Below, one piece after another: positions 1 to 21,873 of a DNA stretch of 64,000 nucleotides. The notes under the pieces are model-generated. The model ran no database searches. It saw only the letters and a program-made list of their open reading frames with translations, and was not told the origin of the DNA. Position 1 is the first letter of the stretch, and each line of letters begins with the position of its first letter. The DNA is from a virus (taxonomy: Duplodnaviria > Caudoviricetes): positions 22,149 through 86,148 of the IMG/VR virus record IMGVR_UViG_3300038345_000118; one strand, given 5' to 3'. Made by a program: the position numbers and the translations under genes.

Positions 1-3000
1 GTACTTGGCAATTTGCTTGGCGCACTGGCTTGCCTTGTTGTTGGGATGGTCGCCATACGCAGGGTCAATCATTCGCATATCAAGCGACATCTTACGGGCC
101 TGATCGGTGGCGTAGAGCATCTTGGCCTTCTTCTGCTTGTCGGTTGGATTCTTAATACCAATCAGGCTGAAATCGCCATCCTTGGCAAACTTCATCAGCA
201 CCTTTATATATTCCTCCTGGTCGGGGGTAGGCTTGATGTTCATCAGCATGGCGTTCTTGGCGGGTCGCTCAATGCCCACATCCTCGGCAGTGCGGAAATC
301 GGTAATCTCATTATAGAACATCGCCAGCTCAGGCACCTTGATAAAGTAACGGAAACGTTCCTTCAGTACTATTGAGTTGGTAATGCTGAACTCAAACTCC
401 TGCGACTTCTTGGTGAAGATAGCGGCCCACGCATCGAAACAGGTGATACGCTGATCTGCCAAAGCATTTGGACGGAGATAGCGGAACAGGCTGTAAAGCT
501 CCGTCAGCGAGTTTGTCACCGTGGTACCACTCAGGAACGTGGCTCCGAGGTCGCGGCCTGTGCGTTTCTGAATCGTGCGGATAGCCATGAGCAGGTTAAA
601 GGCTCGCTTGCTCCCCTCTGTGTTGCCGATGCCGGCCACACGGTCGTGACGGGTGGTAAAGCCGAGGTTCTTGAACTGATGGCTCTCATCGACAAAGATA
701 TGGTCGATACCCATCATGCGGAAGTCCACGATGTCATCCTTCCTATTGCGCATGCTGTTCTGCAGTTCACGTAACTTTGCCTCACGGTTGCGCTTCCTGG
801 TTTCCAGTCCGCGACGCATCTTAGACGAGATGTCGTAGCCATATTCACCTAAGAGGTCAAGTGCATCTTCCAGCTGTTGCAGCTCGTCGCGCAGCAACTC
901 CTCCTGTACCTCGTCACTCTGAGGAATGCGGCCAAACTGGTCGTGCGACATGATGATGCAGTCGTAGTCGTTGTTCTTCGCATTGTTCAGGAACTCAATG
1001 CGGTTGGCTCCGCTGTAGTCGGCGGCTGTAGCAAACAATATCTTTGCATCGGGGTAGGCTGTGCGGTAGGTCTCGGCAATCGCACTGACGTTGGCCTTCA
1101 ATCCGATAATCATCGGCTTGTGGCACATACCCAGTCGCTTCATCTCGTGTGCAGCAATACACATGATGAGCGTCTTGCCACTGCCTACCTCGTGGTCGCA
1201 GATACCGCCGCCGTTCAAGAGCAACATCCAAATGCAGTCCTTCTGTGAGTCGTACAGACGTTCAATGCCGTACTTGGCTTTCAGACCGACCATATCAAGA
1301 CCGGGGAATGTCTGGTGACTGCCGTCGTACTTAGGTTTCACGAAACAGTTGAACCGGCGGTTATAGACATCGGCCAGCTTATCGCGAAACGCCTTGGGCT
1401 GACGCTGCAGCCAGTCCTCATAACCCTGTCGGATTTCCTCAATCTTGGCAGCGGCCAGCTGTGTCTTCTCAGGGTCTTCCACCTTGATTTTGTCATAGTT
1501 GTCGGTATAGACATAGAATCCATCCTTGTCACGCAGATACTTCATCATCTGCGGCGTGGTGTTGTGCAGGGCATGTGTCAGCAGGTCCATGCCGTCAAGC
1601 TGCTTGGTAGCCTCACTGCTCACGCTGTACTGCGACCAGATCTTTTCGTTATGATGGTCGGCACTGACGGCGTACTGGTCAATCTGCGGCTCGTACTTCA
1701 CCGTTACTTTCACCTTGCCGGACCAATAACTGTTGTCCTTATCGTCGGGCATCGAGAAAAACTCCGTGGCAAACTTGCTATACACATCGGCATCCACCCA
1801 GCGCTCACCGAGGTTGAAGTCCAACTGCTCGAAGGGGATAGGCTCTGGCACTGCCTCTCGCAGTGCCTGAAGTGAAGAGTGAAGAGTGAAGAGTGAAGAA
1901 TCTTCACGATTACCATGTATCAGTTCCGGGTACTTCCGTTCAATGGCCTCTATCTTCTCGATGACGTTGCCGCTGATGAACTTCGACTTAATTTCATATT
2001 CGCCTTCCAGGGGGTTATAGAACACCTCGCCTTGTAGCTCGCCAAGCAACTGCTCAGCATCCATGCCGGTCAGCGACTCCATATAACCGATGTGCGGCTC
2101 GCCGTACTCGTTCAGACTGGCGGCCAGGGCTTCCTTTGCGGTGTAGGTCTTATCCTCTTCCTCGGTGGCAAAGGCAATAGGGCGGAGCATGATGTCGGCT
2201 TTCTGCCAACAGCCATCGGTCTTCACCTCAATGCCCAACAGTTCCTTCGCCACGCGCTCCACCGTAGGCTGGTTCTTAGCGTCGTGCAGATAGCCGAACT
2301 CCTTCACAAAGTCATCGTAGAGCTTGTTCAGGTCGCGGCGAAGCTCCGCTTTCTCTATCTGCTCGTTCTGCTCCTGCTCGTACAACTGCGTGTAGCATTC
2401 CTGAATGGCCGTCAGCACCTTCTCCTTCTTGGTCAGGCGCTTCGCCTTGGGTTTGTTGGCGCTTGATGTCGTTGTAACGTTATTACGTGATGACGTTATA
2501 ACGAGGTTTGCCGACAAGTCGGCTGCAAGCACTTTCTGCAAATCTTCAGCAATGCCCTGCACACCGTCCTTATGCAGATAGGTAAACCCGGGCTTGCCGT
2601 AGGCATCGGTGTCAACCTTGCTGCTCGTGGCAATCACATGGTCGGGCTTCATGGTGAAGTACAGGTTGGTGGGGCAGTCGTTGTCGGTATAGGCAGAGAG
2701 CAGCAGCGTCTCGTCGAGCGTCATCTCTCCCCTACCCTCTTCCTTCTGCAGCACTAGCAGGTCAGTACCCACCTCCGTACCGTTGTCCTTGAACAGGTTG
2801 TTTGCCAGACGGTAGGCACCAATCAGGCGGGCACTCTTCAATGCCTCTGCCAGCTGCTCCGTGTCTCGGTTCAGATAATTGCTTGTGATGATGTAAGCCA
2901 GCAGACCGCCGTTACGCAGGCAGTCCAGACCTTTCAGCACATAGTAGCGGTGGATCATCCTTGCAGCATCACGGCGCACCTGATTGTCGCTGTTGCTATA

Positions 3001-3594
3001 CGCAGGGTCGAACACCTGAATGTTACCAAACGGCACATTCGTGGTCACGAGGTCGAACTGTCCCAGGTCCTCGTTGGGGATAGTCTCGAAACCCTTGATG
3101 CGGATGTCAGAATAACGATAATGTCCGTACTTTGCATTCAGGATAACGCCTGTCAATAAATCTTTCTCGTAAGCCACCATGCGATGACAACCTTCACACA
3201 CAGAAGGAGTTTGAAGAAAAACGCCCTTTCCTGCAGCAGGGTCAAGAACATTTGCCGTAGGCATTGCATCCCATAATGTCGTACTTATAGCAGCCACAAA
3301 TTCCCATGGTGTATAGAACGCCGTCAGCGTAGATGCCTTCAATGATTGCATCCATGCCTTAAACTCGCGCTCATCCTTACTGTTGTCACGCAGCAGGTTA
3401 TGAAGGCGCGTCGTATCGCAGAAGCAGTCGAGGTCGCTTGCTGCCCATGCTCCAGTGTCGAGCGGATTGAGCACGAAGCCCAAACCGCCAAAGCCGGTAT
3501 ATTTATTCAGTATGTCGTTGTCGCACTTGTCTGTTGTAAGTGCATGCTCTAATGCCGCGATGTTATCGCGCAGTCTCTGTAATTTCGTTGCCAT
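1..3594 (-). CDS. DarB-like N6-adenine methyltransferase / SNF2 helicase fusion (3' end runs off the window)
   Basis: Manually translated, absent from the ORF track. Starts MATKLQRLRDNIAAL; contains STLTAFYTP, motif I VLDPAAGKG, motif IV DLVTTNVPFG, Walker A DHEVGSGKT, Walker B IFVDESH and FLSGTTVTNS. No stop seen in the segments read. Confidence 0.9.
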   Translation of the reverse strand, partial: MATKLQRLRDNIAALEHALTTDKCDNDILNKYTGFGGLGFVLNPLDTGAWAASDLDCFCDTTRLHNLLRDNSKDEREFKAWMQSLKASTLTAFYTPWEFVAAISTTLWDAMPTANVLDPAAGKGVFLQTPSVCEGCHRMVAYEKDLLTGVILNAKYGHYRYSDIRIKGFETIPNEDLGQFDLVTTNVPFGNIQVFDPAYSNSDNQVRRDAARMIHRYYVLKGLDCLRNGGLLAYIITSNYLNRDTEQLAEALKSARLIGAYRLANNLFKDNGTEVGTDLLVLQKEEGRGEMTLDETLLLSAYTDNDCPTNLYFTMKPDHVIATSSKVDTDAYGKPGFTYLHKDGVQGIAEDLQKVLAADLSANLVITSSRNNVTTTSSANKPKAKRLTKKEKVLTAIQECYTQLYEQEQNEQIEKAELRRDLNKLYDDFVKEFGYLHDAKNQPTVERVAKELLGIEVKTDGCWQKADIMLRPIAFATEEEDKTYTAKEALAASLNEYGEPHIGYMESLTGMDAEQLLGELQGEVFYNPLEGEYEIKSKFISGNVIEKIEAIERKYPELIHGNREDSSLFTLHSSLQALREAVPEPIPFEQLDFNLGERWVDADVYSKFATEFFSMPDDKDNSYWSGKVKVTVKYEPQIDQYAVSADHHNEKIWSQYSVSSEATKQLDGMDLLTHALHNTTPQMMKYLRDKDGFYVYTDNYDKIKVEDPEKTQLAAAKIEEIRQGYEDWLQRQPKAFRDKLADVYNRRFNCFVKPKYDGSHQTFPGLDMVGLKAKYGIERLYDSQKDCIWMLLLNGGGICDHEVGSGKTLIMCIAAHEMKRLGMCHKPMIIGLKANVSAIAETYRTAYPDAKILFATAADYSGANRIEFLNNAKNNDYDCIIMSHDQFGRIPQSDEVQEELLRDELQQLEDALDLLGEYGYDISSKMRRGLETRKRNREAKLRELQNSMRNRKDDIVDFRMMGIDHIFVDESHQFKNLGFTTRHDRVAGIGNTEGSKRAFNLLMAIRTIQKRTGRDLGATFLSGTTVTNSLTELYSLFRYLRPNALADQRITCFDAWAAIFTKKSQEFEFSITNSIVLKERFRYFIKVPELAMFYNEITDFRTAEDVGIERPAKNAMLMNIKPTPDQEEYIKVLMKFAKDGDFSLIGIKNPTDKQKKAKMLYATDQARKMSLDMRMIDPAYGDHPNNKASQCAKQIAKY

Positions 3595-3597: not shown

Positions 3598-3831
3598 TTA
3601 CGCCTCCTTGATTTTGATAAATATATTGTAACGAAGCAGTGCAAACACCACCTCGTAAAGTGTGTCAATAGTTAAGAACTCTGTCCAGAAAGTCGGCCTC
3701 TCTTCCTCGTCCCTTGTAACCACCGCAAACCTGGTTCCGCATCGTGGATCGGCCTGCTCTACATGAGCTTTAGAGTTGAAGTTGTTTTGCAACCAATACT
3801 CTATCGTTTGAATCTTTTCTTTCGTTGCCAT
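3598..3831 (-). CDS. hypothetical protein
   Basis: 77 aa ORF, A-rich start context, tightly packed in the operon. Confidence 0.75.
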   Translation of the reverse strand: MATKEKIQTIEYWLQNNFNSKAHVEQADPRCGTRFAVVTRDEEERPTFWTEFLTIDTLYEVVFALLRYNIFIKIKEA

Positions 3832-3870
3832 AACTTATGTTTTTTGAGTTTATCGTTTTTAATTGTTTAT

Positions 3871-4263
3871 TTATTCACATTCAAAATAGAATATCACGTT
3901 GAGCATGTTGCCCAACTGATAGAACTCTACCACCAGGTCGGGGTTGTCCTCACACTCCCACGCCTTGAACATCTTGCGGTAGTCGGCCAGAACAGCGTCG
4001 CGGGTGTACTTCCAATCCTCTGTGCCGGGAACAGCAATCACGGTAATGGTAACACAGTTGTCGCCATATTTCCACCGTGCATCCACCAGTGCGCTCTCAC
4101 ACTTAATGCCCTGCTCATCTTTCACGGCCTTATAGCCTATCAGGTGACGTGTCCTTGAACCGTCGCGATGGTCGTGAGCCGCATAGAAATCCTCGAACAC
4201 CTCGTCCTCGAACGGGTCTTCCATCAAATTCTTGTTATCAATAGGTGCTGCAATTTTTTTCAT
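3871..4263 (-). CDS. hypothetical acidic protein
   Basis: 130 aa, D/E-rich, co-oriented in the operon. Confidence 0.8.
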   Translation of the reverse strand: MKKIAAPIDNKNLMEDPFEDEVFEDFYAAHDHRDGSRTRHLIGYKAVKDEQGIKCESALVDARWKYGDNCVTITVIAVPGTEDWKYTRDAVLADYRKMFKAWECEDNPDLVVEFYQLGNMLNVIFYFECE

Positions 4264-4268
4264 TGTCG

Positions 4269-4592
4269 TTATCTTTTTAGTTTGTCGTTTTTGAATTTTG
4301 CATAACTCTCATAGTTCCAAACCAGACCTTGGTCGTCGTAGAACCTGATACCTTTGCAGTTATAGTCACACAACCATGCGAAATCATTCATCAGGACCTC
4401 ACTATGATGGCCTGTCCATGAATATTCAAAAGAACCATCGAGGTGATGACGCTGACCTATGGATGAACAGTCGTCAATAGTCGCTGCCTCCTTTTCGGCA
4501 AATTTCTTAGCGTCATTATATTCTTCAAAGTAAGCACGATATTCAGTGCTTTCACCTCTGATTTTCCGTACTGTATAAATCGTCTTAAACAT
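4269..4592 (-). CDS. hypothetical protein (low-GC)
   Basis: 107 aa, AT-richer codons than neighbours. Confidence 0.75.
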   Translation of the reverse strand: MFKTIYTVRKIRGESTEYRAYFEEYNDAKKFAEKEAATIDDCSSIGQRHHLDGSFEYSWTGHHSEVLMNDFAWLCDYNCKGIRFYDDQGLVWNYESYAKFKNDKLKR

Positions 4593-4610
4593 AGCCGTAA
4601 TCTTTTATCT

Positions 4611-5192
4611 TCACGCTGCCATCCTTGCCAGCAGTGCTTGGCGCAACTGCTCAGCAAGCGTAAGAGGTTTTGCCGCAGGCATAGGCTTTACAATAGCCTT
4701 TGTCTTCGTGGCTGCCTTCTTTTTCCGTTCTCCCCTCGGGGAGTTAGAGGGGGTTTTTGCTTTTGTTTTCTTCACCTCGGGCAGCACCGCCCACCGTTCG
4801 CCGCCCTTGGCGCAGAAGCGCACCTTCTGTCTCATGGACGGGCAGTTCAGCTTGCAGAATCCTGAGGTGACGTCAAAGATATTGTCGAGGCGGTAGGAGA
4901 AGCGGAAGTTTCCGAACTCCATGCGTGTCTCCCACGTCTTCTTGCTGAAGCCCAAAAGTCCTCCGTCACCGGCGAACGTCGAGATGAAGACGTCCCAGTG
5001 CTCGCACAGCCCCATGTCCTCGATGATGATGCCCGGTGCGCTTTCGTAGCACTTGTTCCCGTGCAGTCCCTGAAGGACTTCGCTCAGCCTAAACTCACCT
5101 TCGTTTGGGTTTCTGGTGCAGTGCTCCCACACCCATGCGCACTGCCGCAATAGCGACATGGCGATACGCATATTCAATTCCTGTTGTTCCAT
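4611..5192 (-). CDS. hypothetical protein, C-terminal -MAA
   Basis: 193 aa, basic C-terminal tail ending LRQALLARMAA. Confidence 0.8.
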   Translation of the reverse strand: MEQQELNMRIAMSLLRQCAWVWEHCTRNPNEGEFRLSEVLQGLHGNKCYESAPGIIIEDMGLCEHWDVFISTFAGDGGLLGFSKKTWETRMEFGNFRFSYRLDNIFDVTSGFCKLNCPSMRQKVRFCAKGGERWAVLPEVKKTKAKTPSNSPRGERKKKAATKTKAIVKPMPAAKPLTLAEQLRQALLARMAA

Positions 5193-5225
5193 AGTTGTAT
5201 TTCGTTTAATTCGTTAAATTCGTTG

Positions 5226-5267
5226 TTCAAAGAGGGCTGGCCCGTCATCCCGACGGGACAGCCCAAC
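5226..5267 (-). terminator. GC-rich hairpin, probable intrinsic terminator/attenuator
   Basis: Minus strand GGGCTG-TCCCGTC-GGGAT-GACGGG-C-CAGCCC-TCTTT. Confidence 0.5.
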
Positions 5268-5353
5268 ACTCAAAAAATTACAAGTTATGATATATCTTGT
5301 ATTTAGTTCCCGTAGTCGCATCAAAGCATAGGTCAAGCCGCTACGGGATGGGG

Positions 5354-5965
5354 TTACTTCTCAATGTCATACATATCCACGCCCAGCTCGTCGGCCACAG
5401 CCGTGAGCGCCGTGTGGCTCCAGTGGTGTTCGCAGAAAACCTCGCTGCACTTCACAATCACCGCCTCCGTGATATCCTCAATAGAGGCGTAGGCATTCAG
5501 GTTTGCCGGCTCGTCGTACTGCTCGGCCAGCGCAGCGTTTACGCTCAGCAGGTCTTCCGTGCTTGCCATCGTAGCCGCGTCGTCAAGCACATAGCCCAGC
5601 GTCCGGTTCATCCACCTTACGGCGGCTTCCTCGCTGCCGCAATACTCATGCTCGTGCACGAACTTGCCACCATTCATCAACACCGGCGACGACGGAGACG
5701 TATCGACATGCACGATGCAGCGGATAATCCTGTCGCAACGCCGCATCGACTTCACCCGCACATCGGGCCACGCCTCGCTCACCAGCCGGTCCAGTTCCTC
5801 CTCATAGAAGCCGCTGGCATAGTTCTCCGTATCTCCGTCGCTCCAGCTGACGTTAAGCGAATAGCAGTTACCTCCCAACTCACGGCGCACCTCCAACTGT
5901 GCGCCATACTCCTTCAGGTTCTCGTTGGCCTTTTCCAGGGCGGCCTCCCATGATTTCTTTGCCAT
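5354..5965 (-). CDS. hypothetical acidic protein
   Basis: 203 aa ORF in the operon. Confidence 0.8.
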   Translation of the reverse strand: MAKKSWEAALEKANENLKEYGAQLEVRRELGGNCYSLNVSWSDGDTENYASGFYEEELDRLVSEAWPDVRVKSMRRCDRIIRCIVHVDTSPSSPVLMNGGKFVHEHEYCGSEEAAVRWMNRTLGYVLDDAATMASTEDLLSVNAALAEQYDEPANLNAYASIEDITEAVIVKCSEVFCEHHWSHTALTAVADELGVDMYDIEK

Positions 5966-5988
5966 AGTTTTGTTACTCGTTTAATGTA

Positions 5989-6735
5989 TTACCTCTCAAT
6001 CCCATTCTCGTGCAGATACACTTGGCGCATAGCCTCGTGGTAGTCGTCGGCGTTCACGGCGAAGTAACCTTTTGCGTCAATGAAGCGGTCGATGTCGCCG
6101 TCCACGTCCTCGATATTCCCGTTGCAGTGTACGAAGAACAGCGGGCAGTCTGCAAAGCTGTAGATGAGATTGCTCTCGCCCCGGTGGGTGTCACCGTCCA
6201 CACGGCGCAGCCGCACCGTCTCGCTATAGTCGTCGGCATCGTCGCAGTAAGTCTGCACCAGACTGGTCCACACCTTCTCAACCACCTTCACCGCATCCTC
6301 CAGCTTCACGTCATCGTCCTTCACGTCCACGTCCTCTCCATCGTAGAGCACATACACCTCATAGTTCGGCCCTGTCTGATACGCCTCGATATATATCTGT
6401 GCCTTCACGTCCTCCTGCTCCAGGTGCTCGTTGGCCAGTGTGACATACTGCGTCACTTCCTCCCACATCTTGTCGCGCTTCGTGTCAATGCCGAAAGCCG
6501 CCATCATGCGCTGCTGGTTGTCATCCGACAGCGAGTCAATGTCGATGTCGCCCTCAAACTCCTTGCATCCGCAGTGTAGGTATATCTTGTCCTCCTTGTC
6601 GGAGTACCAGATGGTTTCCACGTCCACCGCCGTCGGCCCGATATAGAGCGTCACGTTGTTTCCCTCTGCATAGAAATTATGCTCATGGCTGCTCATATAG
6701 TCCATCGCAGCCTCCTGTATTGATGTCTTTGTCAT
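5989..6735 (-). CDS. hypothetical highly acidic protein
   Basis: 248 aa, very D/E-rich. Confidence 0.8.
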   Translation of the reverse strand: MTKTSIQEAAMDYMSSHEHNFYAEGNNVTLYIGPTAVDVETIWYSDKEDKIYLHCGCKEFEGDIDIDSLSDDNQQRMMAAFGIDTKRDKMWEEVTQYVTLANEHLEQEDVKAQIYIEAYQTGPNYEVYVLYDGEDVDVKDDDVKLEDAVKVVEKVWTSLVQTYCDDADDYSETVRLRRVDGDTHRGESNLIYSFADCPLFFVHCNGNIEDVDGDIDRFIDAKGYFAVNADDYHEAMRQVYLHENGIER

Positions 6736-6753
6736 AGCCGTTACACGTTTAAG

Positions 6754-7239
6754 TTATTCATCCTTCACTTTCTCCACATCCCTACGCAGATGCCAGTAGA
6801 TAGCCTGCGTCAGGTAGTCCAGTTCTGCCAGCGACATTTCAGATGCAGGGCTGTGGTCTGGCTCAGCCTGCTCACTGTCCCAGCAAACACCGGAGTTCAC
6901 AAACTGATAGAACATCAGTGTTTCATAGCCCGTCTCGTCGCGCTCAATATACAGCGACCAGTAGGCATGATAGCCGAACTCGTCGGCCAGTTCGCTACTC
7001 AGCGGATGTACGTCTGCTGTCAGATCATCGCACCATTTCAGCGGCAGTGCCATGTGGCATCCGAAATGGGCAATGTCAAACACCTTCACAATGGTATAGC
7101 CATCGTCCTCCTCAATTCCGTGTTCGTTAAGATAGTAGTCGTTATAGTCCTCTCCGTTCTCCTTGACCAACGTCATCAGCGTGTCAAGCATTTTCTTCTT
7201 GCACGCCTCCCTTATTAGATGAATTTGCTCTGATTTCAT
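6754..7239 (-). CDS. hypothetical acidic protein
   Basis: 161 aa ORF in the operon. Confidence 0.8.
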   Translation of the reverse strand: MKSEQIHLIREACKKKMLDTLMTLVKENGEDYNDYYLNEHGIEEDDGYTIVKVFDIAHFGCHMALPLKWCDDLTADVHPLSSELADEFGYHAYWSLYIERDETGYETLMFYQFVNSGVCWDSEQAEPDHSPASEMSLAELDYLTQAIYWHLRRDVEKVKDE

Positions 7240-7251
7240 AATTGTTACTCG

Positions 7252-7467
7252 TTAAAGATTATACATCGGTATCTCGTCGCTGGCTGTCATACGACCTTCC
7301 ATCAACTGAAAGAAGATAGTCTCATAGCGTTCATGCTCGCTACCCTCCGAGCACTTCATGCCCTCGTAGTAGAACTCCAGCGCCTTGCGCCGCGTCATCT
7401 TCTCCGTTTTGCGGTAGCAGGTCACCGTTACCTTCTCATTCAGTTTTCTTGCACTAAAATCTGCCAT
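7252..7467 (-). CDS. small phage protein (CSEGSEHERY motif)
   Basis: Start re-set to MADFSARK to avoid overlap with the upstream stop; 71 aa. Confidence 0.75.
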   Translation of the reverse strand: MADFSARKLNEKVTVTCYRKTEKMTRRKALEFYYEGMKCSEGSEHERYETIFFQLMEGRMTASDEIPMYNL

Positions 7468-7471
7468 AGTC

Positions 7472-7873
7472 TTAAACCTCAAAGTTAGTTACATTCTTAA
7501 CACTCTCTATGTGTTTCAGCACAGCCGCCTTCACCTTCGGCCATTCATCCATAGCCAGTTTAAATCCATCCACGTTTTCACGTGGGATATACCAATAGGG
7601 GTTGGTCAAGTACGACTGCGTATAGTCTTTATCGTCATCATACAGTTTTCCGTCTTTCACCTTCTTGGTGGTCCCATAGTGGCGAAAGTAGAAACACGGT
7701 TCCTTGCGACACCAGAACTCCAGCCTGTCGCATCGGTGCCCATAGATGAAGCCATAGGCAAACTCATACTCGAAAGGCACGTCACAGTCGGCCTTCTTAA
7801 ACTGCTCACTAATCCAGTTCAGCATCTTGGTCATGTTCTCCAGCAGATGCTTTCTCAATGTCATTTCGTCCAT
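7472..7873 (-). CDS. hypothetical protein
   Basis: 133 aa ORF in the operon. Confidence 0.8.
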   Translation of the reverse strand: MDEMTLRKHLLENMTKMLNWISEQFKKADCDVPFEYEFAYGFIYGHRCDRLEFWCRKEPCFYFRHYGTTKKVKDGKLYDDDKDYTQSYLTNPYWYIPRENVDGFKLAMDEWPKVKAAVLKHIESVKNVTNFEV

Positions 7874-7926
7874 AACTTTCGTTTTTTGAATGATTTTCTA
7901 TTAATTTCCGATAATTTCTTTCCAGT

Positions 7927-8298
7927 TCATGCAGCCATTTCGGCGAGATAGGTTTCAGGATAGGCCCATTCGAGTTTCCAGAAGAAATACTCTATCGGGA
8001 TAACCTCGCCCGTGTCGCAGTCCACTTCCTCGTTTACCAGAGCCTCCAGGTCTTCACGGGTATAAGCGCTTACCTGATCTTGTGGATAGCAACGTTCGCC
8101 ATCAATCATCACCTCTTCGGCCTCACAGAATCCGTTCTCAGGAATGTAGCACACAGCCTTGGGGTCGTTCCTAAAAGCCTTTTCGTCCTTGAACACATAG
8201 CCATAGCCCAGCCCGTCGATGCTGAAATATTCGTTGGTGAAGTAAGCCGCACCGTCCTTGACGATGCGCTTACCTGCCTGCTGATATTCTTTTGCCAT
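7927..8298 (-). CDS. hypothetical protein, C-terminal -MAA
   Basis: 123 aa, ends AYPETYLAEMAA. Confidence 0.8.
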   Translation of the reverse strand: MAKEYQQAGKRIVKDGAAYFTNEYFSIDGLGYGYVFKDEKAFRNDPKAVCYIPENGFCEAEEVMIDGERCYPQDQVSAYTREDLEALVNEEVDCDTGEVIPIEYFFWKLEWAYPETYLAEMAA

Positions 8299-8357
8299 AG
8301 TTATTGCCCGTCATGCCGATAGCGCAGCGTTAAATTCTAAACTCTAAACTCTAAACT

Positions 8358-9770
8358 TCAAGCCGCCTTTGACAAAAGGCGCTTGATGTCCTCTGGGATG
8401 TCCTCACCTGCCATCACCTTCTGCAGCATAGCGGCCACATCCTCCTTGGTATAGCAATCTGTTGCAACGGTGTTCTCACGCTTAGCCTTGCGCTCCTCGG
8501 CCTTAGCCTTATATTCGGCACGCTGTGCCTCACGCTCCTTACGGTGGGCGTCGAGCGTGCCGTTCACGTCCTCGACTGCCTTGCTGATAGCGGCAGCGTC
8601 GCCATTGTTCCATGCCTCGCACAACTGCTTGGCTGCATTCACATAGACAGGACCGAATACGAGCATATAGGTCTTGTTGCCCTTCTTGTCGCGCTCCCAT
8701 GTCTTCGAGCCGTGAAGCTCGGGGCCTGACTGATAGCGGGCATCGTCCTCGGTAAATCCCTTGATACGGGCGCAGGTCTTGCCCTTCTTGTTCGTGTAGG
8801 TCTCATACACGAGTGGAGCGTTAGCGTTAACGTTATCGTTGGCCTTTGCCTTTGGCTTCTCGCTCTTAGTATTCTTGACCTTCGGCTTCTCGCTCTTGGG
8901 CTTCTCGCTCTTGGGCTTCTCGGCCTTGGGCTTCTCGGCCTTAGTAGCGTTAGCGTTATCGTTAACGTTAGCGTTAACGTTATCGTTATCGTTACCCTTC
9001 GGCTTCGGTTTCTCCAGCTGATCACAGATAGCCACATGCTTGCCAGCCCTGATGAGCTTGGGCAGATAGGAGTCGAGAGCATGATGCGGGAATCCGGCCA
9101 TCTGCACGCCGTCGTCACCCTTCGTGAGCGTAATGCCCAGCACCTCGGCTACATCCGCAGCGTCCTGCTCGTAGGTCTCATAGAAGTCTCCGCAGCGGAA
9201 CAACAGGATTCTCTCCGGATGCTTCGCCTTCAGGTCGCGGAACTGCTTCATCATGGGGTTATTCACTTGTGCGTTCTGCACGTTAGCACTCTCGTTGTTG
9301 TTGTTCTTTGTTTCCATAACTTGTTCGTTTGAAGTGTTATTCGTATTATTGTTCTCGGTCATCATGTCGGCCATCTGCTTACGGAACGACTCCGTATAGC
9401 CGTACTTGGCGATATTGGCGATAGCCGCATTCAGTTTCTGCCACTCGCGGTGGTCAAATAGCCATGCGATAGCCTCTTTGGCCATCTCCAGATTGACTTT
9501 GTACTGCTCCAGCTTCTTCACGTTGTTCTTCGTGGCCGTCGGCTCGATGTCCACCCATGTGGTTGATGTCAGCGGGTTATTCGAGAAGTCGAATAAGCAA
9601 CCGTAGCCAATGCCCGACGTCCACCCAGGATGATAGTTAGCACGAAATCCTCTACCCTTCGTGTAATTCACACTCACTCTAAGCGTGTTGAACTCCTGCT
9701 CTCCATTTCCGGCCGTCTTATACGGAGCGATAGCCACATAAAAATCCATGTGTTCGATTGTCTTTGCCAT
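8358..9770 (-). CDS. multidomain protein with a stand-alone MutS domain I
   Basis: Central [30 protein letters not shown]...[28 protein letters not shown] matches MutS N-terminus; no ATPase; ends LSKAA. Confidence 0.85.
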
Positions 9771-9842
9771 AGTTGTATTTTTTTAATGCTTAATTCTTAA
9801 TGCTTAATTAATGCCCTCCCCTCGGGGAGGGATGGGAGGGGG

Positions 9843-10811
9843 TCATGCTGCAATAGCCGTGATGCCGTCGTTCTCTTTTGCCTGACGCTCACCCTGTATG
9901 TAGCGGGCAGCTTTCTCTGCACGGCTGCTGGCCCACACAATCATCTTCGGGTCGTTCTTCAACTGTTTCAGCCAGCCTTGAATATAGGCCACGCTATTCT
10001 TGAAAGCCTTGTCGCAGTCCATACCGCAGACGTTCACTAACATGGCAGCACCCATCTCGGCCACCAGTTCCTCGCGGCTGTACGCCTCGTTGCCGAACAT
10101 AGCTACACCCGTCTGCTCGCTCTTGCGGTTGCATCGGCTCTCGATAAGCGTAGAGTGCGTCAGCTCATGGAAGGCGGTGGAATAGTATTCCTCCACATCC
10201 TGATACTGGCTCATCATCGGTACCACCACCTCGTCGGCAGCAGGCGAGAAATACGCTCGGTTGCTCGGTTTATTGTTGATGAACTTCAAATGCGGTTCAG
10301 CAGCCAGATAGCCTTGTATAGTACGCTCTGCCTTATCCACGGGCTGCAACGTCACCGTGGGCACATCGACTGTCAGCTTAGACGCGATACCCTCGCAGTC
10401 GTCGATGTGGAAGACGTGATAGAACTTCAGGATAGGCGCATAATACTCTTGGAACACCGTCACCGTCATCGTGTCGCCATCCTCCGTTTCCTCCTTCTCT
10501 TTCTTCATCACCGTGCGGGAATAGAAGCACACGATCCCGCTCTGTGCGCCCTTCTTGATAGAGCCGCCCAACGCTTTCACCTGCTTAAACGTCAGATACT
10601 CGCCAGGCTTGCCCAGCAGCATCTGGTTAATAAACGAATAGGGCTTGCGAGTGGTGTACGAGATAGCCCCTTCCTGCGTACCGCTCCACGGGCGACGCCA
10701 CGGGATAAGACCCTTCTCCATTTGTTCGACAATCTTATCCGTTACCATTTGGTAAACGTTAAACACCTTCTTCGTGCCACCCTTGGTGGACTTCGTTTTC
10801 TTTGTTGCCAT
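9843..10811 (-). CDS. ardC: ArdC-family antirestriction / ssDNA-binding protein
   Basis: YQMVTDKI..ME.G.IPWRRPW, KPYSFINQMLL, zincin-like YYSTAFHELTHST, YSREELVAEMGAAML. Confidence 0.9.
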   Translation of the reverse strand: MATKKTKSTKGGTKKVFNVYQMVTDKIVEQMEKGLIPWRRPWSGTQEGAISYTTRKPYSFINQMLLGKPGEYLTFKQVKALGGSIKKGAQSGIVCFYSRTVMKKEKEETEDGDTMTVTVFQEYYAPILKFYHVFHIDDCEGIASKLTVDVPTVTLQPVDKAERTIQGYLAAEPHLKFINNKPSNRAYFSPAADEVVVPMMSQYQDVEEYYSTAFHELTHSTLIESRCNRKSEQTGVAMFGNEAYSREELVAEMGAAMLVNVCGMDCDKAFKNSVAYIQGWLKQLKNDPKMIVWASSRAEKAARYIQGERQAKENDGITAIAA

Positions 10812-10835
10812 AATTGTAAATTTTTTGAGTTAAAC

Positions 10836-11318
10836 TTATGCTGCTTCCAGCTCTACTTCACCCCACCAGCCATCCACGCTGCGCAGATCGCTCTCATAGA
10901 GCACGCTCAGGCAGTTAAAGAACAGCTCTGCCACCGCACGATGAGCGGCCTCGTTTTCTATCTGATAGAGCACGCTCTTAAAGAAACTGAACATTGACAG
11001 GCGGAACTTTTTCTTATCCATCACGTTCTCTACCTTGTGAAAGATAATGCCGTTATCGGAGGCATAGCCCTCACGCTGGATGAGTGCGCCCTTCTTACGA
11101 TAAGATTCAAACACATCGTCGTACTGCTCCGTTTCAGGCATTTCACCGTCACCGTATTGCTCGTTCACGCTCACTACGTTCAGCGCGTAGGCATGTTCAA
11201 ACTCCTTGCGCACATTGTCGATAAACCACTTGTGGCTGTCGCGCTTCGCTTCCTCATAGCCACACATCAGGCCAGCGGCCTTGATGTACTCCACTTTGCT
11301 GATAATAAAACTGCTCAT
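10836..11318 (-). CDS. hypothetical protein, C-terminal -EAA
   Basis: Start re-set to MSSFIISK; 160 aa. Confidence 0.8.
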   Translation of the reverse strand: MSSFIISKVEYIKAAGLMCGYEEAKRDSHKWFIDNVRKEFEHAYALNVVSVNEQYGDGEMPETEQYDDVFESYRKKGALIQREGYASDNGIIFHKVENVMDKKKFRLSMFSFFKSVLYQIENEAAHRAVAELFFNCLSVLYESDLRSVDGWWGEVELEAA

Positions 11319-11331
11319 AGTCGTTTGTCGT

Positions 11332-11661
11332 TTAGATTTCACACATACTGCGCACCATTTCCTTCAGTTCTGCCTCAGTGGTCACGCCACGACGGCGGAA
11401 CTCCTTAGTAAGAGATGCCGTAGTCAGGTACGTCGGCATGGCGTAGTATTCCTCGGGATAGAGCACCTTGATAACCTTGTACTCATCCTCGGCCCAGTCA
11501 TAGTCGCCATTGTCCTCGGCATCCAGCGCGGCGTCCAGCCCCACGTTCAGGCGGTAGCCTCGCTCGCTCATAGTAACCACGCTGGCCTCGCACTTAAAGC
11601 CCAGCTCCTTTGCCGTGTCATTGATGAACTTGGCAAACACTTTCGATACTTTCACTTTCAT
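11332..11661 (-). CDS. hypothetical protein
   Basis: 109 aa ORF in the operon. Confidence 0.8.
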   Translation of the reverse strand: MKVKVSKVFAKFINDTAKELGFKCEASVVTMSERGYRLNVGLDAALDAEDNGDYDWAEDEYKVIKVLYPEEYYAMPTYLTTASLTKEFRRRGVTTEAELKEMVRSMCEI

Positions 11662-11674
11662 GGTTTACAGAGTT

Positions 11675-11923
11675 TTAGTCCTCAAAATAGCCGTCGATAA
11701 TAGCGAACGAAGCCTGTTCGCCCTCGCCAGTAGTCATGCGCACCTCGTACTCGTAGAAACCCTTGTCGCGGTTCATGCGGTCGATACGCTCAGTCACTTT
11801 GCCACCGCAGACGTCACACATACGCTCTACGTCGCTGTTCAGTTCTGCCTTGGCCTTGTCGTAGTTCTTGAAGTAGCGGTCGTGAATCCGACCGCCCACA
11901 TTCTTTCGATAGATTGCAAACAT
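11675..11923 (-). CDS. hypothetical protein
   Basis: 82 aa from ACTATG just after the upstream stop. Confidence 0.75.
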   Translation of the reverse strand: MFAIYRKNVGGRIHDRYFKNYDKAKAELNSDVERMCDVCGGKVTERIDRMNRDKGFYEYEVRMTTGEGEQASFAIIDGYFED

Positions 11924-11925
11924 AG

Positions 11926-12255
11926 TCACGCTGCTTTAGATAGTCCTTGTTCTTCACGTTCATCGTAGGGAATATAGAGCAGGTCGGCCTTGATGAGTGC
12001 GTCGATAGCCACACGGGCACACTTGCAGGCCCATTCGTCACGCGGATCGTACCAGCCCTTGCGCTCATAGGAGGCCAGCACCTTCAGGTACTCAATAGCC
12101 AGTTCTCCACGCTGCCCCACCAGATAGCGGTGGTCGCGAGCCATAGCCCGCGCCACGTCGCGCTTGTGATAGAGGCCGCCATTGATAAAGTTACTCTCTG
12201 TCTTCACGAACTCCTGTTCGTGCTCGTTAAGATTCAGTTCTCCGTCGTACATCAT
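11926..12255 (-). CDS. hypothetical protein, C-terminal -KAA
   Basis: 109 aa, ends QGLSKAA. Confidence 0.8.
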   Translation of the reverse strand: MMYDGELNLNEHEQEFVKTESNFINGGLYHKRDVARAMARDHRYLVGQRGELAIEYLKVLASYERKGWYDPRDEWACKCARVAIDALIKADLLYIPYDEREEQGLSKAA

Positions 12256-12303
12256 AGTCGTAAAGTTTTAAATTCTTCACTCTTCATTCTTCACTCTTCA
12301 CTT

Positions 12304-12480
12304 TCATGCAATAAGTCCGTCAAACGGGTCCCATGTGTATTCGATAGCACACACGTCCATGCCTTCGGCCTGCATGTCGGCCATAGCCTGCTTCTCGGCT
12401 GCGCTGATAGATGAAACACTTGCACCGGTTGCTGCTGCCAGTGCGATAACGATTGCCTTAGATGATTTCTTTGTCTTCAT
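12304..12480 (-). CDS. small hypothetical protein (58 aa, not in ORF track)
   Basis: MKTKKSSKAIVIALAAATG...DPFDGLIA; leader AACTCAAAAAATCACAAAAGTTATG like neighbouring genes. Confidence 0.7.
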   Translation of the reverse strand: MKTKKSSKAIVIALAAATGASVSSISAAEKQAMADMQAEGMDVCAIEYTWDPFDGLIA

Positions 12481-12548
12481 AACTTTTGTGATTTTTTGAG
12501 TTTATACTAATGCTTAATTCTTAATGCCTAATGCTTAATTGCCACTTT

Positions 12549-12761
12549 TTAGGCAGCGGTTTTATAGTCGCCTTTAGAAGATTCTTCACTCTTCACTTTT
12601 AACTCTTCACTTTCTGACTCGTCAGCGTAAGCAAAACAAACCGCAGCGCAACAAATCAGCGCAAGGGAATACAGAATCTGAATAGGGTTCACATCGATGC
12701 CCGTAGCCACGAGCATGCCCAGGGCGAACAGGATGCCGCCAACGATAGATAATTTTTTCAT
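12549..12761 (-). CDS. small two-helix membrane protein, C-terminal -TAA
   Basis: Two hydrophobic segments; tail contains the AGTGAAG repeat translated as EELKVKSEES. Confidence 0.75.
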   Translation of the reverse strand: MKKLSIVGGILFALGMLVATGIDVNPIQILYSLALICCAAVCFAYADESESEELKVKSEESSKGDYKTAA

Positions 12762-12776
12762 TGTTTTGTCCTCCGA

Positions 12777-12956
12777 TTAAAAATCAAATGCTGTTTCGAT
12801 AAATTTCTCTAAGCGGTCTTTCCGCCATTTGCAACCAAGATCACGGGCGAAGGCAAATAGTATGCGCTTCACTTGCGCCTCCGTATAGGTACGAGCGTCC
12901 CGCAGTTCCTGAACTTTAGGACGCATTTGTAGAATCATTGCTTTTGTTTCTGCCAT
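12777..12956 (-). CDS. small hypothetical protein (59 aa, not in ORF track)
   Basis: MAETKAMILQMRPK...FIETAFDF, fills the gap between co-oriented genes. Confidence 0.65.
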   Translation of the reverse strand: MAETKAMILQMRPKVQELRDARTYTEAQVKRILFAFARDLGCKWRKDRLEKFIETAFDF

Positions 12957-12976
12957 AGGAATATGGTTTTATAGAT

Positions 12977-13198
12977 TTAACATGGATAACACCCCATAGC
13001 CAGAGGCCAACCTTCAGGACCATAGCCCCCATAGCAATAGAGCTGTTCCCATACTTCATAGGTACTTTTGTAATAATCACCACCACGCTGCTGCTTAGAA
13101 TAAAGCGTAGGGATAGGCATACCATGTGCCATACAATAGTCGCTCACGGCCTTTGGCTCGCGAACTTCAAAATAGACTTCTGATTTCTTTGTTGTCAT
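12977..13198 (-). CDS. hypothetical protein
   Basis: MTTKKSEVYFEV..., preceded by GGAGGACAAAATTATG. Confidence 0.7.
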   Translation of the reverse strand: MTTKKSEVYFEVREPKAVSDYCMAHGMPIPTLYSKQQRGGDYYKSTYEVWEQLYCYGGYGPEGWPLAMGCYPC

Positions 13199-13227
13199 AA
13201 TTTTGTCCTCCATATTTTAGTGAATAA

Positions 13228-14262
13228 TAGTAGAAGAGGGCGGACTCGAACCGCCTGATGCCCACGTGGGGCGTCCAGCCCTGACTCTCTCGGCTATCGT
13301 ATGCGTGTGCTGCGTCGGCCACGCCTGACACCTGGTGTCCTGCGTTTGGATTCGTTGCCCATAGGCCATATTGTCAGCTCACGCAAATAGCGGGAAAAGT
13401 CGTTTACACTCTCCTCCTCCGTTTTATCTTCAAAATCTCGGATACACTTTACTTTAATCTGTCCCCCTCGTTTGTGTCCGACCCGAAACAGGCCGTTAGA
13501 TAACACGCTCATGCCGCTTGAAAACCGGCTGCACATGAAACGAGTACAGCACACTCACTGGCCACTCGCGCTCTACCCACCCAGGGGGCCTGGCGCTCAT
13601 AGCCCTTCGTGCGAAGGACAAGATATTGAAGTTCGTCGCGGTTTTTTCTTCCTGAGCCCCGCCCCTATGTGTGCATAGGTATTGTCCGCCGCTTGCAAAG
13701 TTTTATGCGGATAGGATAGAACCCCACCCGGCGAGACTCACTTTCGGACCCGGCTGCATCGTCCGCCTCGTGAGCGCCTATAAAAACGCCTTCGACTTCC
13801 TGCTCTCGCCTTCCTTGGATAGTCTTTAATTATAACCCTTCTGCCTTCTCGCCTGGGGCGGTTTTGCTTGAGTTCGTCACCTCCTTGCAACCTACCCCCT
13901 GCGCCCTCCACCGGGAGGGCATAGACAGTTCGTTATCTCGTGCGCCGAAACGCCTACCTAACTATCCGGTCCCAGATCGCTAACTATCCCGGGGCCTTGC
14001 GGCCTGCCTTTAGCTCTCTGCCCCTTTGCATTTAAGAGAGTGGGGGTACACCCGAGGTTTTCCGGCTATCCTTCTGCCTGCCTTTGCTTTTACTCCCTGG
14101 CCTTGGGAGGATCTTTTGCTCCCCCTTGCCCTGAAAACCGGGCTTTATAGTGGAGGATCCGGGGGCCTTGAAAACCGGGCCGATCCGGGCAAAATGTTTT
14201 TTAGTGGGGGCAGGGGGTATCGATCCCCCTTGCGCTCCTTGCGCCCCCTGGCCTTGCGGCCG
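13228..14262 (-). ncRNA. candidate large structured ncRNA ending in a tRNA-like T-arm module
   Basis: ~1 kb without a credible ORF; many hairpins (GGCC-GCAA-GGCC twice, AGGGGG/CCCCCT, GCCCTCC/GGAGGGC, CCTATG/CATAGG); 3' GGCGG-TTCGAGT-CCGCC. Confidence 0.5.
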
Positions 14263-14922
14263 TTATGCTGCAAACAATAGGGCGGCGGCCTCTGCCTCTG
14301 TTATTGTGCCGGCCTCCACTTGTTTTTTAAGATCCTGGGCTTTCTTTGCAAACTCCTTGGCCTTGTCTGCATAGGCCTTGCGCTCCTGACTCTTGGCCTT
14401 GCGCTCTGCCTTGCGCTCTGCCTTGCGCTCTGCCTTCTCTTTTGCCTTGCGCTCCTTGTCTTGCTCCTTGTCGATAGCTGCGGCGTATTTTTCAACAAGC
14501 CCCAGACGGGCGGCGGCAGCATCTATAACGGAGTTATCACTCCAACAACTTGCAAGCGTACCAATATAATATGTACCTGCAAAGTGGATCAAAACGTGAT
14601 CGGCGTCAGGTGTAAAACTTGGATCAAGATAGAAAGCCGTAGTATCAGTTACGGCAACAAGAGACGTAACCGGGCGGCCGTTAAAAGCATATATAGAACT
14701 CCACCAAAAACCGGCGCCGTCAACGAAGGCCGCATTTAAACGGGAATAAAGATCTTTAATGTTTTCGTTACTGTAACCTTCTACGCCCTTGGCCTCCTTG
14801 TCTCTGCCCTGGGCTACCTTATTCAGGTGCCGGAAAATGTAACCGGGGTTACTGTTGATCACCTTGTTTTCATTCTTTGCACCCTTTTTAACCTGGGCAG
14901 TGGTTTTTACTTGCTTATTCAT
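14263..14922 (-). CDS. first gene of the leftward operon; hypothetical with KAER coiled-coil repeats, C-terminal -FAA
   Basis: 219 aa, directly downstream of a TAACTTTG promoter. Confidence 0.85.
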   Translation of the reverse strand: MNKQVKTTAQVKKGAKNENKVINSNPGYIFRHLNKVAQGRDKEAKGVEGYSNENIKDLYSRLNAAFVDGAGFWWSSIYAFNGRPVTSLVAVTDTTAFYLDPSFTPDADHVLIHFAGTYYIGTLASCWSDNSVIDAAAARLGLVEKYAAAIDKEQDKERKAKEKAERKAERKAERKAKSQERKAYADKAKEFAKKAQDLKKQVEAGTITEAEAAALLFAA

Positions 14923-14969
14923 AACTTTAAATTTTTAAGTGTGAAACATATTGTTTATTAATTCTGCTG

Positions 14970-15036
14970 CAAAGTTATATCTTTTTCGTTTTACTCGCAA
15001 GCATTTTCTTAATTATTTTATCTTTTTCGTTTTACT
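14970..15036 (-). promoter_or_regulatory. Bacteroidetes-type promoter of the early operon with two direct operator-like repeats
   Basis: Minus-strand TAACTTTG at 14970-14977, TTGC about 20 nt upstream; ATCTTTTTCGTTTTACT at 14979-14995 and 15020-15036. Confidence 0.7.
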
Positions 15037-15211
15037 TTTTCCGATTTCTTGACAAAATATACAAAAGTATCTTTATTTTGTAATCTCAGAGTTTGCAAAA
15101 TGATACCTTAACCACTATATTCCTACCTGAAAACCGCAAACAAAGGCCAACACTATTTGACTTTAATAATGTACGCGCGAGAACTGGTGTTGCCTGGTGT
15201 TCACGCTCCAT

Positions 15212-15393
15212 CACCACCCACACCACCAGAAGCACACCACCAGAAGCACACCACCACCACACCACCCACACCACACCACCACACCACACCACCACACCAC
15301 ACCACACCACACCACCACACCACCACCCACACCACCACCACACCACACCAAAGCATATTTACAGCCGCCGCCGGACGCCCACACCCACCCCAC
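15212..15393. repeat. C1-3A (CACCAC/CACAC) low-complexity tract
   Basis: Nearly pure C/A run, including a tandem CACCACCAGAAGCA. Confidence 0.95.
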
Positions 15394-15486
15394 CGATACA
15401 ATGTGGCGCGGGGTGATCTCTGCGTAAGAAAAAAAAATGAAAAAAAAGTGGGAGGTTGGAAACGATTATAAAAGGGATGGAGCAAT

Positions 15487-15529
15487 AAACAACTGCGGAC
15501 TTCATCAAAAAAGAAGTCCGCAGTTGTTT
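15487..15529. terminator. perfect 17-bp inverted repeat, probable bidirectional terminator
   Basis: AAACAACTGCGGACTTC / GAAGTCCGCAGTTGTTT with T-rich flanks on both strands. Confidence 0.75.
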
Positions 15530-15705
15530 CCTTTTAATTAACTATAATAAATTAAATAGTGGTATTTATGTTAATCTAAGGTTTTATTTTAACACTCTAT
15601 ACCTTTTATATTTAACAATTCAATTTTAAATATTGAATGATTCTCTTTATTCTATTTTTAGAATAGAAAGTATAAAAAGGAAAAATGTTTTTACATAATT
15701 AATAT

Positions 15706-17920: not shown

Positions 17921-17952
17921 GTAAGAGATCTTTAGTTATCTGTCGGTGGAGT

Positions 17953-18411
17953 TTAATCCCATGAGTGTTCTTTAAGGGTTTCGTCGTCGGTGGGACAACA
18001 TCTGATGTCGGGGTCGTTGGTGTAGTCGATGTCGTCGTCCTCGTCGAGTTCCAGTTGGTTAAGTTCCGAGCGGGCGATGTCGAGGATGGTGGACTTGACG
18101 AGGGTTTCACCGTGCTGCATGTAGAGGACGGGGGTGTGGCGGTAGTCGGGCGAGAGCATGTTTTTCAGGGCCCATGTCTCGGCGGCTAAGGTGTAGTCGC
18201 GCTTCAGTTTGGTGAACATCACTTCAGGCATCATCTGCGCCAGTTCGCGTCGCACGGTGTCGATGTGCTTGAAGTCGAAATAGATGACTTGCGCCTGCAC
18301 CTGGCCGCCGTCGCTTGTCACCTCCAGTCCGTAGAGAAACCGCCCGAAGTATTCCTTCAGCATCTTCTTGTAGTCACGGCCAAGTGACTGAGGGGTTTTG
18401 ATTCTTTTCAT
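17953..18411 (-). CDS. hypothetical protein under a structured leader
   Basis: 152 aa, acidic C-terminus. Confidence 0.8.
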   Translation of the reverse strand: MKRIKTPQSLGRDYKKMLKEYFGRFLYGLEVTSDGGQVQAQVIYFDFKHIDTVRRELAQMMPEVMFTKLKRDYTLAAETWALKNMLSPDYRHTPVLYMQHGETLVKSTILDIARSELNQLELDEDDDIDYTNDPDIRCCPTDDETLKEHSWD

Positions 18412-18412
18412 A

Positions 18413-18625
18413 CGCTATGAATTTTGACAAACAAAAACTGCACTACGGGCTGTCAAGGTTCATAGCGGTGAGACCTTTGGGGCTGTTATCCAGTACCCCA
18501 CCCGGTGCAGTCGTATTTTTTGAGGATAATCCTCGTTCATTTTCGGGCACAAAAAATGCCGCTTGTTCGGCGGCTCTTTTTCTTCTTCGTGCCACCGCTA
18601 TGAATTTTTTGACATGGCAAAGATA
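18413..18625 (-). promoter_or_regulatory. promoter plus C4/CI-like antisense-type structured leader
   Basis: TATCTTTG at 18618-18625; two direct copies of TGTCAAAA(AA)TTCATAGCG and one complementary copy CACCGCTATGAACCTTGACA. Confidence 0.55.
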
Positions 18626-21154: not shown

Positions 21155-21158
21155 ATTT

Positions 21159-21803: not shown

Positions 21804-21873
21804 TTTAAGTTAAGAGTGAAGAGTGAAGAGTGAAGTATCCACTCCCTCCCCTCGGGGAGGGTCGGGGTGGGGG

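Follow-up and report, generated by a model that had tools for sequence, protein, structure and literature searches.

Terminal Ala-Ala tails as candidate ssrA-like degrons in the establishment module of a putative Bacteroidales phage-plasmid

The host protease ClpXP gives temperate phages and phage-plasmids a means of timing or remodelling proteins that they encode, guided by terminal signals. ClpX recognises the C-termini of the MuA transposase and the Mu repressor, and ClpXP turns over P1 Phd and lambda O. The Dar proteins of P1 are produced late and packaged into the capsid. Natural ssrA-like degrons of ClpX, grouped as C-motif 1, have been described along with the tmRNA tag (Flynn et al., 2001, 2003, as cited in PMC7652416). 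In an unbiased E. coli screen, only ssrA-like tags ending in Ala-Ala acted as potent C-terminal degrons. The terminal dipeptide was necessary but not sufficient, 39% of Ala-Ala-ending 5-mers being weak, and Gly, Ser, His or Pro at position -3 weakened the tag (PMC10862746). Furthermore, anti-defence islands have been described in the leading regions of conjugative plasmids, where transient action is achieved transcriptionally and neither ClpX nor proteolysis is mentioned (PMC11541004). A literature search yielded neither measurements of how specific ClpX is in Bacteroidota nor any paper describing Ala-Ala tails on a phage module of the kind presented here.

Herein, a window of 64,000 nucleotides was analysed within an 86-kb viral record (CheckV completeness estimate 72%). 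Judged from its genes, the source is probably a P1-like phage-plasmid of rumen or gut Bacteroidales, since it encodes a Rep_3-type initiator, a DnaA_N/STAND protein and a giant DarB-like methyltransferase-helicase. Megablast against phage and plasmid collections returned nothing useful as a close relative, and a scan of viral contigs with the MutS domain I (MutS-I) protein found none. The minus-strand gene train under study is preceded by Bacteroides-type boxes that probably form its own promoter (Table 1). A hairpin terminator and a G-rich repeat lie upstream of the region holding these boxes. A late-type promoter motif, GCCCTTGAY, is present in ten copies preceding virion genes, none of them in the train, and this absence, together with the boxes, suggests early transcription of the train.

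The recognised anti-restriction genes, encoding the ArdC-like protein and the N6-methyltransferase-helicase, lie near the promoter-proximal end, and relatives of the module carry ArdA, PcfJ, PcfK, LPD11 and LPD29. The labels "early" and "anti-defence" given to the tailed proteins in the original prediction are only partly supported: an anti-defence annotation is confined to these two proteins, and six others match no family in Pfam, PHROGs, NCBIfam or the ESM Atlas. As in the leading-region islands, a promoter-proximal block of small genes includes ArdC and has a presumed role on entry, although the present block belongs to a phage-plasmid with a tail. The Dar system of P1 offers a second likeness, with a giant methyltransferase-helicase standing beside other anti-restriction functions in a P1-like phage-plasmid; unlike Dar, however, the present train lacks the late-promoter motif.

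The pattern of Ala-Ala endings is genuine and larger than first described. All eight genes originally listed are minus-strand open reading frames with the endings given in Table 1, and their positions and varied Ala codons agree with the first description, although a codon-usage-based call (103 genes in the whole genome) places 22 rather than 21 genes inside positions 3598-14922, 8 of them with the ending. The accompanying claim that no other gene of the window ends in this way holds for complete genes, but the giant gene crossing the left edge also ends in Ala-Ala, its C-terminus (KVAA) lying 1292 bases left of the window. Across the whole genome, 10 of 103 genes carry the ending, all in one 20-kb part of the train (10/29 in genome positions 17202-37070 vs 0/74 elsewhere; Fisher p = 8.5e-7). 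Against the internal Ala-Ala dipeptide frequency of the train (1.1%), the binomial p is 4e-13, and the excess is exactly terminal: as the offset from the C-terminus rises from 0 to 11, the counts are 10,0,0,0,0,1,1,0,0,0,0,0. No such tail occurs on the proteins for replication, partition or the virion that this genome encodes.

Table 1. Promoter region and selected genes of the train, with encoded C-terminal ends (window positions unless marked).
Position	Strand	Feature	C-terminal end	Remarks
14923..15090	(-)	Probable own promoter of the train		TAnnTTTG-type boxes TAACTTTG, TACTTTTG
14263..14922	(-)	First gene of train, 219 aa	LFAA (GCA GCA TAA)	No family in Pfam, PHROGs, NCBIfam
12549..12761	(-)	70-aa protein	KTAA	Two hydrophobic segments, acidic tail
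12304..12480	(-)	58-aa protein	GLIA	
11926..12255	(-)	109-aa protein	SKAA	Homologues end SNAA, LMAA, PKAT
10836..11342	(-)	168-aa protein	LEAA	Core end GWWGEVEL, then tail EAA
9843..10811	(-)	ArdC-like protein (ArdcN + zincin metallopeptidase), 322 aa	AIAA	Pfam and PHROG anti-restriction family
8358..9770	(-)	470-aa protein, stand-alone MutS domain I (Pfam)	SKAA	
7927..8298	(-)	123-aa protein, no assigned function	EMAA	
4611..5192	(-)	193-aa protein	ARMAA	Lys/Ala/Pro-rich linker, then tail
3598..3831	(-)	77-aa protein	KEA	Single Ala, excluded from Ala-Ala count
1..3594	(-)	N-terminal 1198 aa of 1628-aa N6-methyltransferase + SNF2-type helicase (DarB-like)		
genome 17202-17639		145-aa protein, same train, outside window	PAA	

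The count of terminal dipeptides that had been proposed for related phages was carried out on related modules, where 40 of 157 genes end in Ala-Ala. Two modules rich in the ending, G001:C31 and L089, lie demonstrably in relatives of the phage lineage; elements of other kinds yielded no such module, and a Bacteroides thetaiotaomicron contig with PcfJ has no Ala-Ala ending in 40 kb, its PcfJ ending in LTA. In several families, the dipeptide is retained on tails that are otherwise variable. In the 168-aa family, the core has a fixed end, beyond which the tail measures anything from 0 to 12 residues; 72 of 120 homologues end in Ala-Ala on tails 2 to 12 residues long, whereas about 18 of the 120 have no tail at all. 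The ArdC-like homologues from the modules carry the ending in 8/8 cases on unalignable tails, compared with 10/150 representatives of the wider family. In the MutS-I family it is found in 105/120 homologues, the remainder ending in TA, VA, AV, EA, MA or IA. All five homologues of the 193-aa protein share it, three homologues of the 70-aa protein, probably a small membrane protein, have unalignable tails ending in KKAA, KDAA and EDAA, and homologues of the methyltransferase-helicase end in KEAA, NEAA and QQAA.

These observations are best explained by genetically encoded ssrA-like degrons, which would give establishment/anti-defence proteins a short life, a reading that we hold to be, on balance, probable. 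The tails would then be portable C-terminal degrons of the C-motif 1 kind. The promoter-proximal part of the train would be expressed on cell entry or on derepression of the phage-plasmid, the pore of host ClpX would engage the exposed Ala-Ala-COOH tails, and ClpXP would unfold and degrade the tailed proteins, so that they vanish quickly once transcription of the train ends. The set cleared in this way would comprise the ArdC-like, MutS-I and giant methyltransferase-helicase proteins, the small membrane protein and several proteins without an assigned function. If ClpXP reads the endings as a destruction signal, the phage therefore probably encodes short protein lifetimes; we infer ClpXP as the reader, a shortened half-life as the effect of the tails, and a self-limiting establishment/anti-defence pulse as the benefit.

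The host side is consistent with this proposal. In four Bacteroidales genomes representing candidate hosts, one of which (G001) contains a relative of the phage, clpP adjoins clpX, and the pore-1 GYVG, pore-2 ITRDVSGEGVQQ and RKH loops of ClpX have the same sequence as in a solved ClpX. The 86-kb phage record itself gave no match to the ClpX zinc finger or to ClpP. The tmRNA tags of the candidate hosts end in YALAA or FALAA, and the phage tails likewise present a free Ala-Ala-COO- terminus, which in the ArdC-like protein is predicted to be floppy and exposed (AlphaFold pLDDT 88 overall, last core helix stopping at 305, residues 314-322 below 50). Unlike the tmRNA tag, the tails are not added by trans-translation: their Ala codons are part of the gene sequence and immediately precede a normal stop, on full-length proteins that make up about one third of a single gene module. 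No upstream element of the SspB type was seen in them. In comparison with Mu, P1 and lambda, where single proteins carry individual, mostly non-Ala-Ala signals, one dipeptide is here common to many unrelated proteins, for which ClpXP-dependent timing is proposed. Among 47 distinct tails, position -3 holds Lys in 17, Met in 9, Leu and Pro in 1 each, and Gly, Ser or His in none, so that the upstream residues are compatible with recognition under the E. coli rule, on the assumption that this rule transfers to Bacteroidota. Features that stand against the degron reading include the insufficiency of a terminal Ala-Ala by itself in E. coli; the lack of the ending on the PcfJ contig; the preference for Lys or Met at -3, as opposed to the Leu of the host tag; the tail of the MutS-I protein, which is predicted with moderate confidence to be a short helix rather than coil (three folded domains, terminal helix 460-469, mean pLDDT 69 over the last ten residues); and the 1628-aa multidomain enzyme, a demanding substrate. 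The single Leu at -3 might suggest avoidance of the exact ssrA ending LAA, a candidate that was rejected, ELAA being the commonest ending in the 168-aa family.

Whether the peptide matters at all was considered from the side of the nucleotides. A translation-termination or nucleotide-level effect of a GCR GCR TRA context, or chance, with a peptide devoid of function, would find some support in the excess of GCA/GCG among terminal Ala codons (79% vs 40% internally; chi-square p = 2e-13) and of TGA stops (45% after Ala-Ala vs 26% after other endings; p = 0.03). However, the last two codons of genes with other endings, in phage and host alike, are equally biased towards A-ending, C-poor third positions, so the bias is a general gene-end effect and a specific nucleotide motif was rejected. 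In addition, genes with the ending use each of the four Ala codons and each of the three stops, near-variants of the dipeptide are amino-acid neighbours (VA, TA, AV), and chance is excluded at p ~1e-12. The original prediction had argued from varied codons for selection on the protein, and this argument gains from the related modules, in which the dipeptide is written with 11 codon pairs and survives on hypervariable tails; selection at the protein level is thus supported in silico. Host genes, proposed earlier as a control, give the same indication: at 79 Bacteroidales chromosomal loci, returned by scanning genome contigs with the MutS-I protein (which mostly matched the host mutS gene, the two sharing about 70% identity in domain I), the ending is found in 0/972 genes where 5.5 would be expected (Poisson P = 0.004). 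The evidence that host chromosomal genes avoid the ending is modest, and neighbouring offsets are low too. The nucleotide or chance reading is largely refuted already and is regarded as extremely improbable. Stop-codon recoding or readthrough was likewise rejected, the frames past the TGA stops closing within a few codons or entering a hairpin.

If the peptide is what counts, it could also mark the proteins for recognition by something other than ClpXP, such as a phage-encoded partner, the capsid (for co-injection) or another protease of the FtsH type. This is unlikely but deserves weight, given the P1-like character of the genome, the choice of residue at -3, the amphipathic helix conserved before Ala-Ala in the MutS-I family, and the placement of the tail-rich modules only in relatives of the lineage, which may therefore point to a lineage-specific reader. 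Tails of unrelated residues and varied length (2 to 12 residues) are nevertheless more in keeping with terminus reading by a pore than with a docking surface, the membrane protein is tailed too, and no candidate reader gene was found. Capsid packaging in particular is disfavoured by the absence of late-promoter motifs from the train; moreover, packaging of DarB in P1 relies on an N-terminal signal. A dual use is conceivable, in which a phage-specified reader packages the tailed anti-restriction proteins in the manner of Dar and host ClpXP erases the cytoplasmic copies, so that the resident plasmid-prophage never disarms its own host; this combination appears distinctly less likely, and a less exotic version would do without packaging, the tails acting as a tunable proteolytic timer across the module, through which host immunity returns once the element is established. 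The suggestion, also made originally, that the tails are decoys occupying host ClpXP, thereby shielding another phage protein or silencing protease-dependent defences such as toxin-antitoxin systems, is very doubtful and gained no specific support. One train does yield many tailed proteins together, and ssrA-like tags bind ClpX tightly; yet ten different folded proteins, among them enzymes with conserved catalytic domains, would be unneeded for saturation, no abundant small protein consisting of little but a tail is present, and family-specific retention of tails on functional proteins better suits regulation of those proteins.

Should the degron reading hold, this phage-plasmid lineage would time its counter-defence at the protein level, with the quality-control protease of the host as its clock, which would explain how a resident element can disable host defences at entry without permanently disarming the host. 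A terminal Ala-Ala on a hypervariable tail would then provide a sequence marker for transient establishment/anti-defence proteins among small phage genes without an assigned function, as well as a natural set of graded degron tags for Bacteroidota.

Among the near-variants of the ending, VA, AV and TA resemble known weaker variants of the ssrA tag, and the family of the 58-aa protein always ends in a hydrophobic residue followed by Ala (PFDG + LIA, FVA or MYA), possibly a weaker variant of the Ala-Ala signal.

Gene calling used a model of codon usage derived from the genome's own long ORFs, and 10 of the 103 encoded proteins end in Ala-Ala. All ten are confined to one segment of a minus-strand gene train (see the table), where they account for 10 of 29 genes, while the remaining 74 genes have none (Fisher 8.5e-7). 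With the train's internal Ala-Ala frequency as baseline, a binomial test gives p = 4e-13, and an offset count over train proteins restricts the excess to the final two residues. The original prediction listed eight such genes and stated that no others in the window shared the ending; a sequence check found all eight as described and none outside the segment, but two further train genes do end this way, a 1628-aa N6-methyltransferase/SNF2-helicase and, downstream of it, a 145-aa protein. The train's distal genes, for a primase-like protein, a helicase, a C5-methylase and an exonuclease, lack the ending.

Coordinates of features (window positions unless the genome or a comparison locus, L, is named)
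Feature	Position	Remark
Long minus-strand gene train	in phage genome	
Ala-Ala segment of train	genome 17202-37070; window -4946 to 14922	
Methyltransferase-helicase	start at 3594	
MutS-domain-I protein	8358-9770	
PFDG-type small proteins	12304-12480; L001:6368-6571; L005:83-253; L087:1153-1362; L086:5676-5855	
G-rich repeat	15190-15400	minus strand
Hairpin terminator	~15490-15540	
TnpB	16461-17858	
RVT_1 reverse transcriptases	L001:11557-13176; L005:6247-7896; L086:12786-14402; L089:13211-14830; L034:14018-15634	
DnaJ (J-domain) + LPD29 protein	L087:8522-9940	
Virion module		includes 2324-aa tape measure, S49 prohead protease
Rep_3-type initiator and DnaA_N/STAND protein	in phage genome	

The MutS-domain-I protein has many homologues: 105 of the best 120, which reach down to 35% identity, have an Ala-Ala end, and the remainder finish in TA, VA, AV, EA, MA or IA. 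Contigs encoding such homologues were fetched and carry the same kind of module, with ArdC-like, MutS-domain-I, LPD11 or LPD29, ArdA, PcfJ and PcfK proteins, together with a reverse transcriptase and the giant methyltransferase-helicase. Terminal dipeptides, whose count in related phages had been proposed as a check, are Ala-Ala in 40 of 157 genes of seven non-redundant modules, with an excess at offset 0 only. The ending is found in 3/3 members of the small membrane protein family, 5/5 of the 193-aa family and 3/3 of the giant enzyme family, likewise in the copy from the Bacteroidales genome G001; families without it keep other endings across homologues. Module homologues of the ArdC-like protein have unalignable tails, yet 8/8 end in Ala-Ala; just 10 of 150 representatives of the wider ArdC family do, which argues that this tail is a module-specific addition beyond the last conserved helix. 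The 168-aa family provides the clearest case: a fixed core ends in GWWGEVEL, after which about 18 of 120 homologues have no tail and the others carry 2 to 12 unrelated residues, with 72 of 120 ending in Ala-Ala and most others in VA, TA, EA or AV. This pattern argues that function resides in the terminal dipeptide, the tail being freely gained and lost. Together with the use of 11 codon pairs and of each of the three stop codons across the seven modules, it upholds the earlier claim of selection on the protein.

The AlphaFold model of the ArdC-like protein, built with a 67-sequence alignment, is confident (pLDDT 88, pTM 0.86); its last helix stops at residue 305, and pLDDT falls below 50 for residues 314-322. 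The MutS-domain-I model comprises three folded domains with disordered linkers and a C-terminal short helix (460-469) of moderate confidence. In three tailed proteins, Lys/Ala/Glu/Pro-rich low-complexity linkers precede the tail.

Searching genome contigs with the MutS-domain-I protein returned mostly the hosts' own mutS (domain I ~70% identical to the phage copy), and 79 chromosomal 20-kb Bacteroidales loci from this search served as host background. Equal enrichment in host genes, named beforehand as a contrary outcome, was not seen: 0 of 972 genes end in Ala-Ala versus 5.5 expected from internal dipeptide frequency (Poisson P = 0.004). The single locus that contains a true module, L034, has the ending in 6 of 30 genes. 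Terminal Ala codons are skewed to GCA and GCG; a DNA motif behind them was rejected because all other phage and host genes show the third-position bias in their final two codons, and a non-peptide effect is very improbable. Across phage and host genes, this third position strongly prefers A and avoids C. Stop codon TGA follows 45% of Ala-Ala endings and 26% of others (Fisher p = 0.03) in the related modules L001, L002, L005, L034, L086, L087 and L089.

In four Bacteroidales genomes checked for a reader of the tail, G001 among them, tmRNA tags are GENNYALAA, GETNYALAA and GNNNFALAA, and clpP adjoins clpX; neither ClpX nor ClpP had a match in the phage record (86,148 bases). The alignment of G001 ClpX to solved ClpX structures has E = 1e-141, and the pore-1 (GYVG), pore-2 (ITRDVSGEGVQQ) and RKH loops agree in it; these loops hold the six residues reported to contact the ssrA Ala-Ala-COO- (PMC7652416). 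In an unbiased E. coli screen, the sole potent short C-terminal degrons were ssrA-like tags ending in Ala-Ala, the dipeptide by itself was insufficient, and a Gly, Ser, His or Pro immediately before the dipeptide made the tag weaker (PMC10862746). Among 47 distinct tails of the present set, position -3 is Lys in 17 and Met in 9; Gly, Ser and His do not occur there. The most economical reading, and on balance a probable one, is that hard-wired ssrA-like degrons give a subset of establishment proteins short lives. Where a tailed protein has a recognisable function, it is anti-restriction (ArdC-like), DNA methylation/helicase (DarB-like) or a captured mismatch-recognition domain. A different reader of the tail, Dar-like capsid packaging included, is unlikely, and tails acting as decoys that saturate ClpXP are more doubtful still. 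If degrons do limit these lifetimes, an element persisting as a plasmid-prophage would counter defences and modify DNA only during the entry phase. Natural ClpX substrates with Ala-Ala ends and individual phage proteins under ClpXP control are already known; a literature search found no published description of module-wide use on phage or plasmid establishment proteins.

The train's timing and role were also considered. The motif GCCCTTGAY occurs in ten copies upstream of virion and lysis genes (23760 to 62885) and has no copy in the train, whose own TAnnTTTG-type boxes lie just upstream of 14922, past a terminator. Six tailed proteins gave no match in function searches (Pfam, PHROGs, NCBIfam, ESM Atlas), and the label 'early anti-defence' is reasonable but unproven. 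Between the hairpin terminator and the putative train promoter region sits an extended, imperfect repeat rich in G, made of GGTGGTGT-like units.

The window covers the record's right-hand 64 kb. Its genes have A-rich leaders and no ribosome-binding sites before their starts, resembling Bacteroidota. A relative on G001 contig C31, with the same train and structural genes 55-75% identical, points to gut/rumen Bacteroidales as hosts; this 110-kb contig from a water-buffalo rumen Bacteroidaceae metagenome-assembled genome (L101, L034, L102, L103) gives a candidate host clade. Residues ~170-257 of the MutS-domain-I protein are ~65-75% identical to chromosomal MutS domain I of many Bacteroidales; the stand-alone domain looks like a captured host domain and perhaps competes with host mismatch repair. 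The ~540-aa reverse transcriptases lie inside the same module in relatives and have no counterpart in the window; the L034 copy ends in TKAA, and the J-domain protein of one relative's module in RQAA. Furthermore, the PFDG-type proteins (~55-70 aa) always end in PFDG, two hydrophobic residues and Ala (LIA, FVA, MYA, FIA), another conserved signature at the C-terminus, and one that recalls the LVA tag variant.
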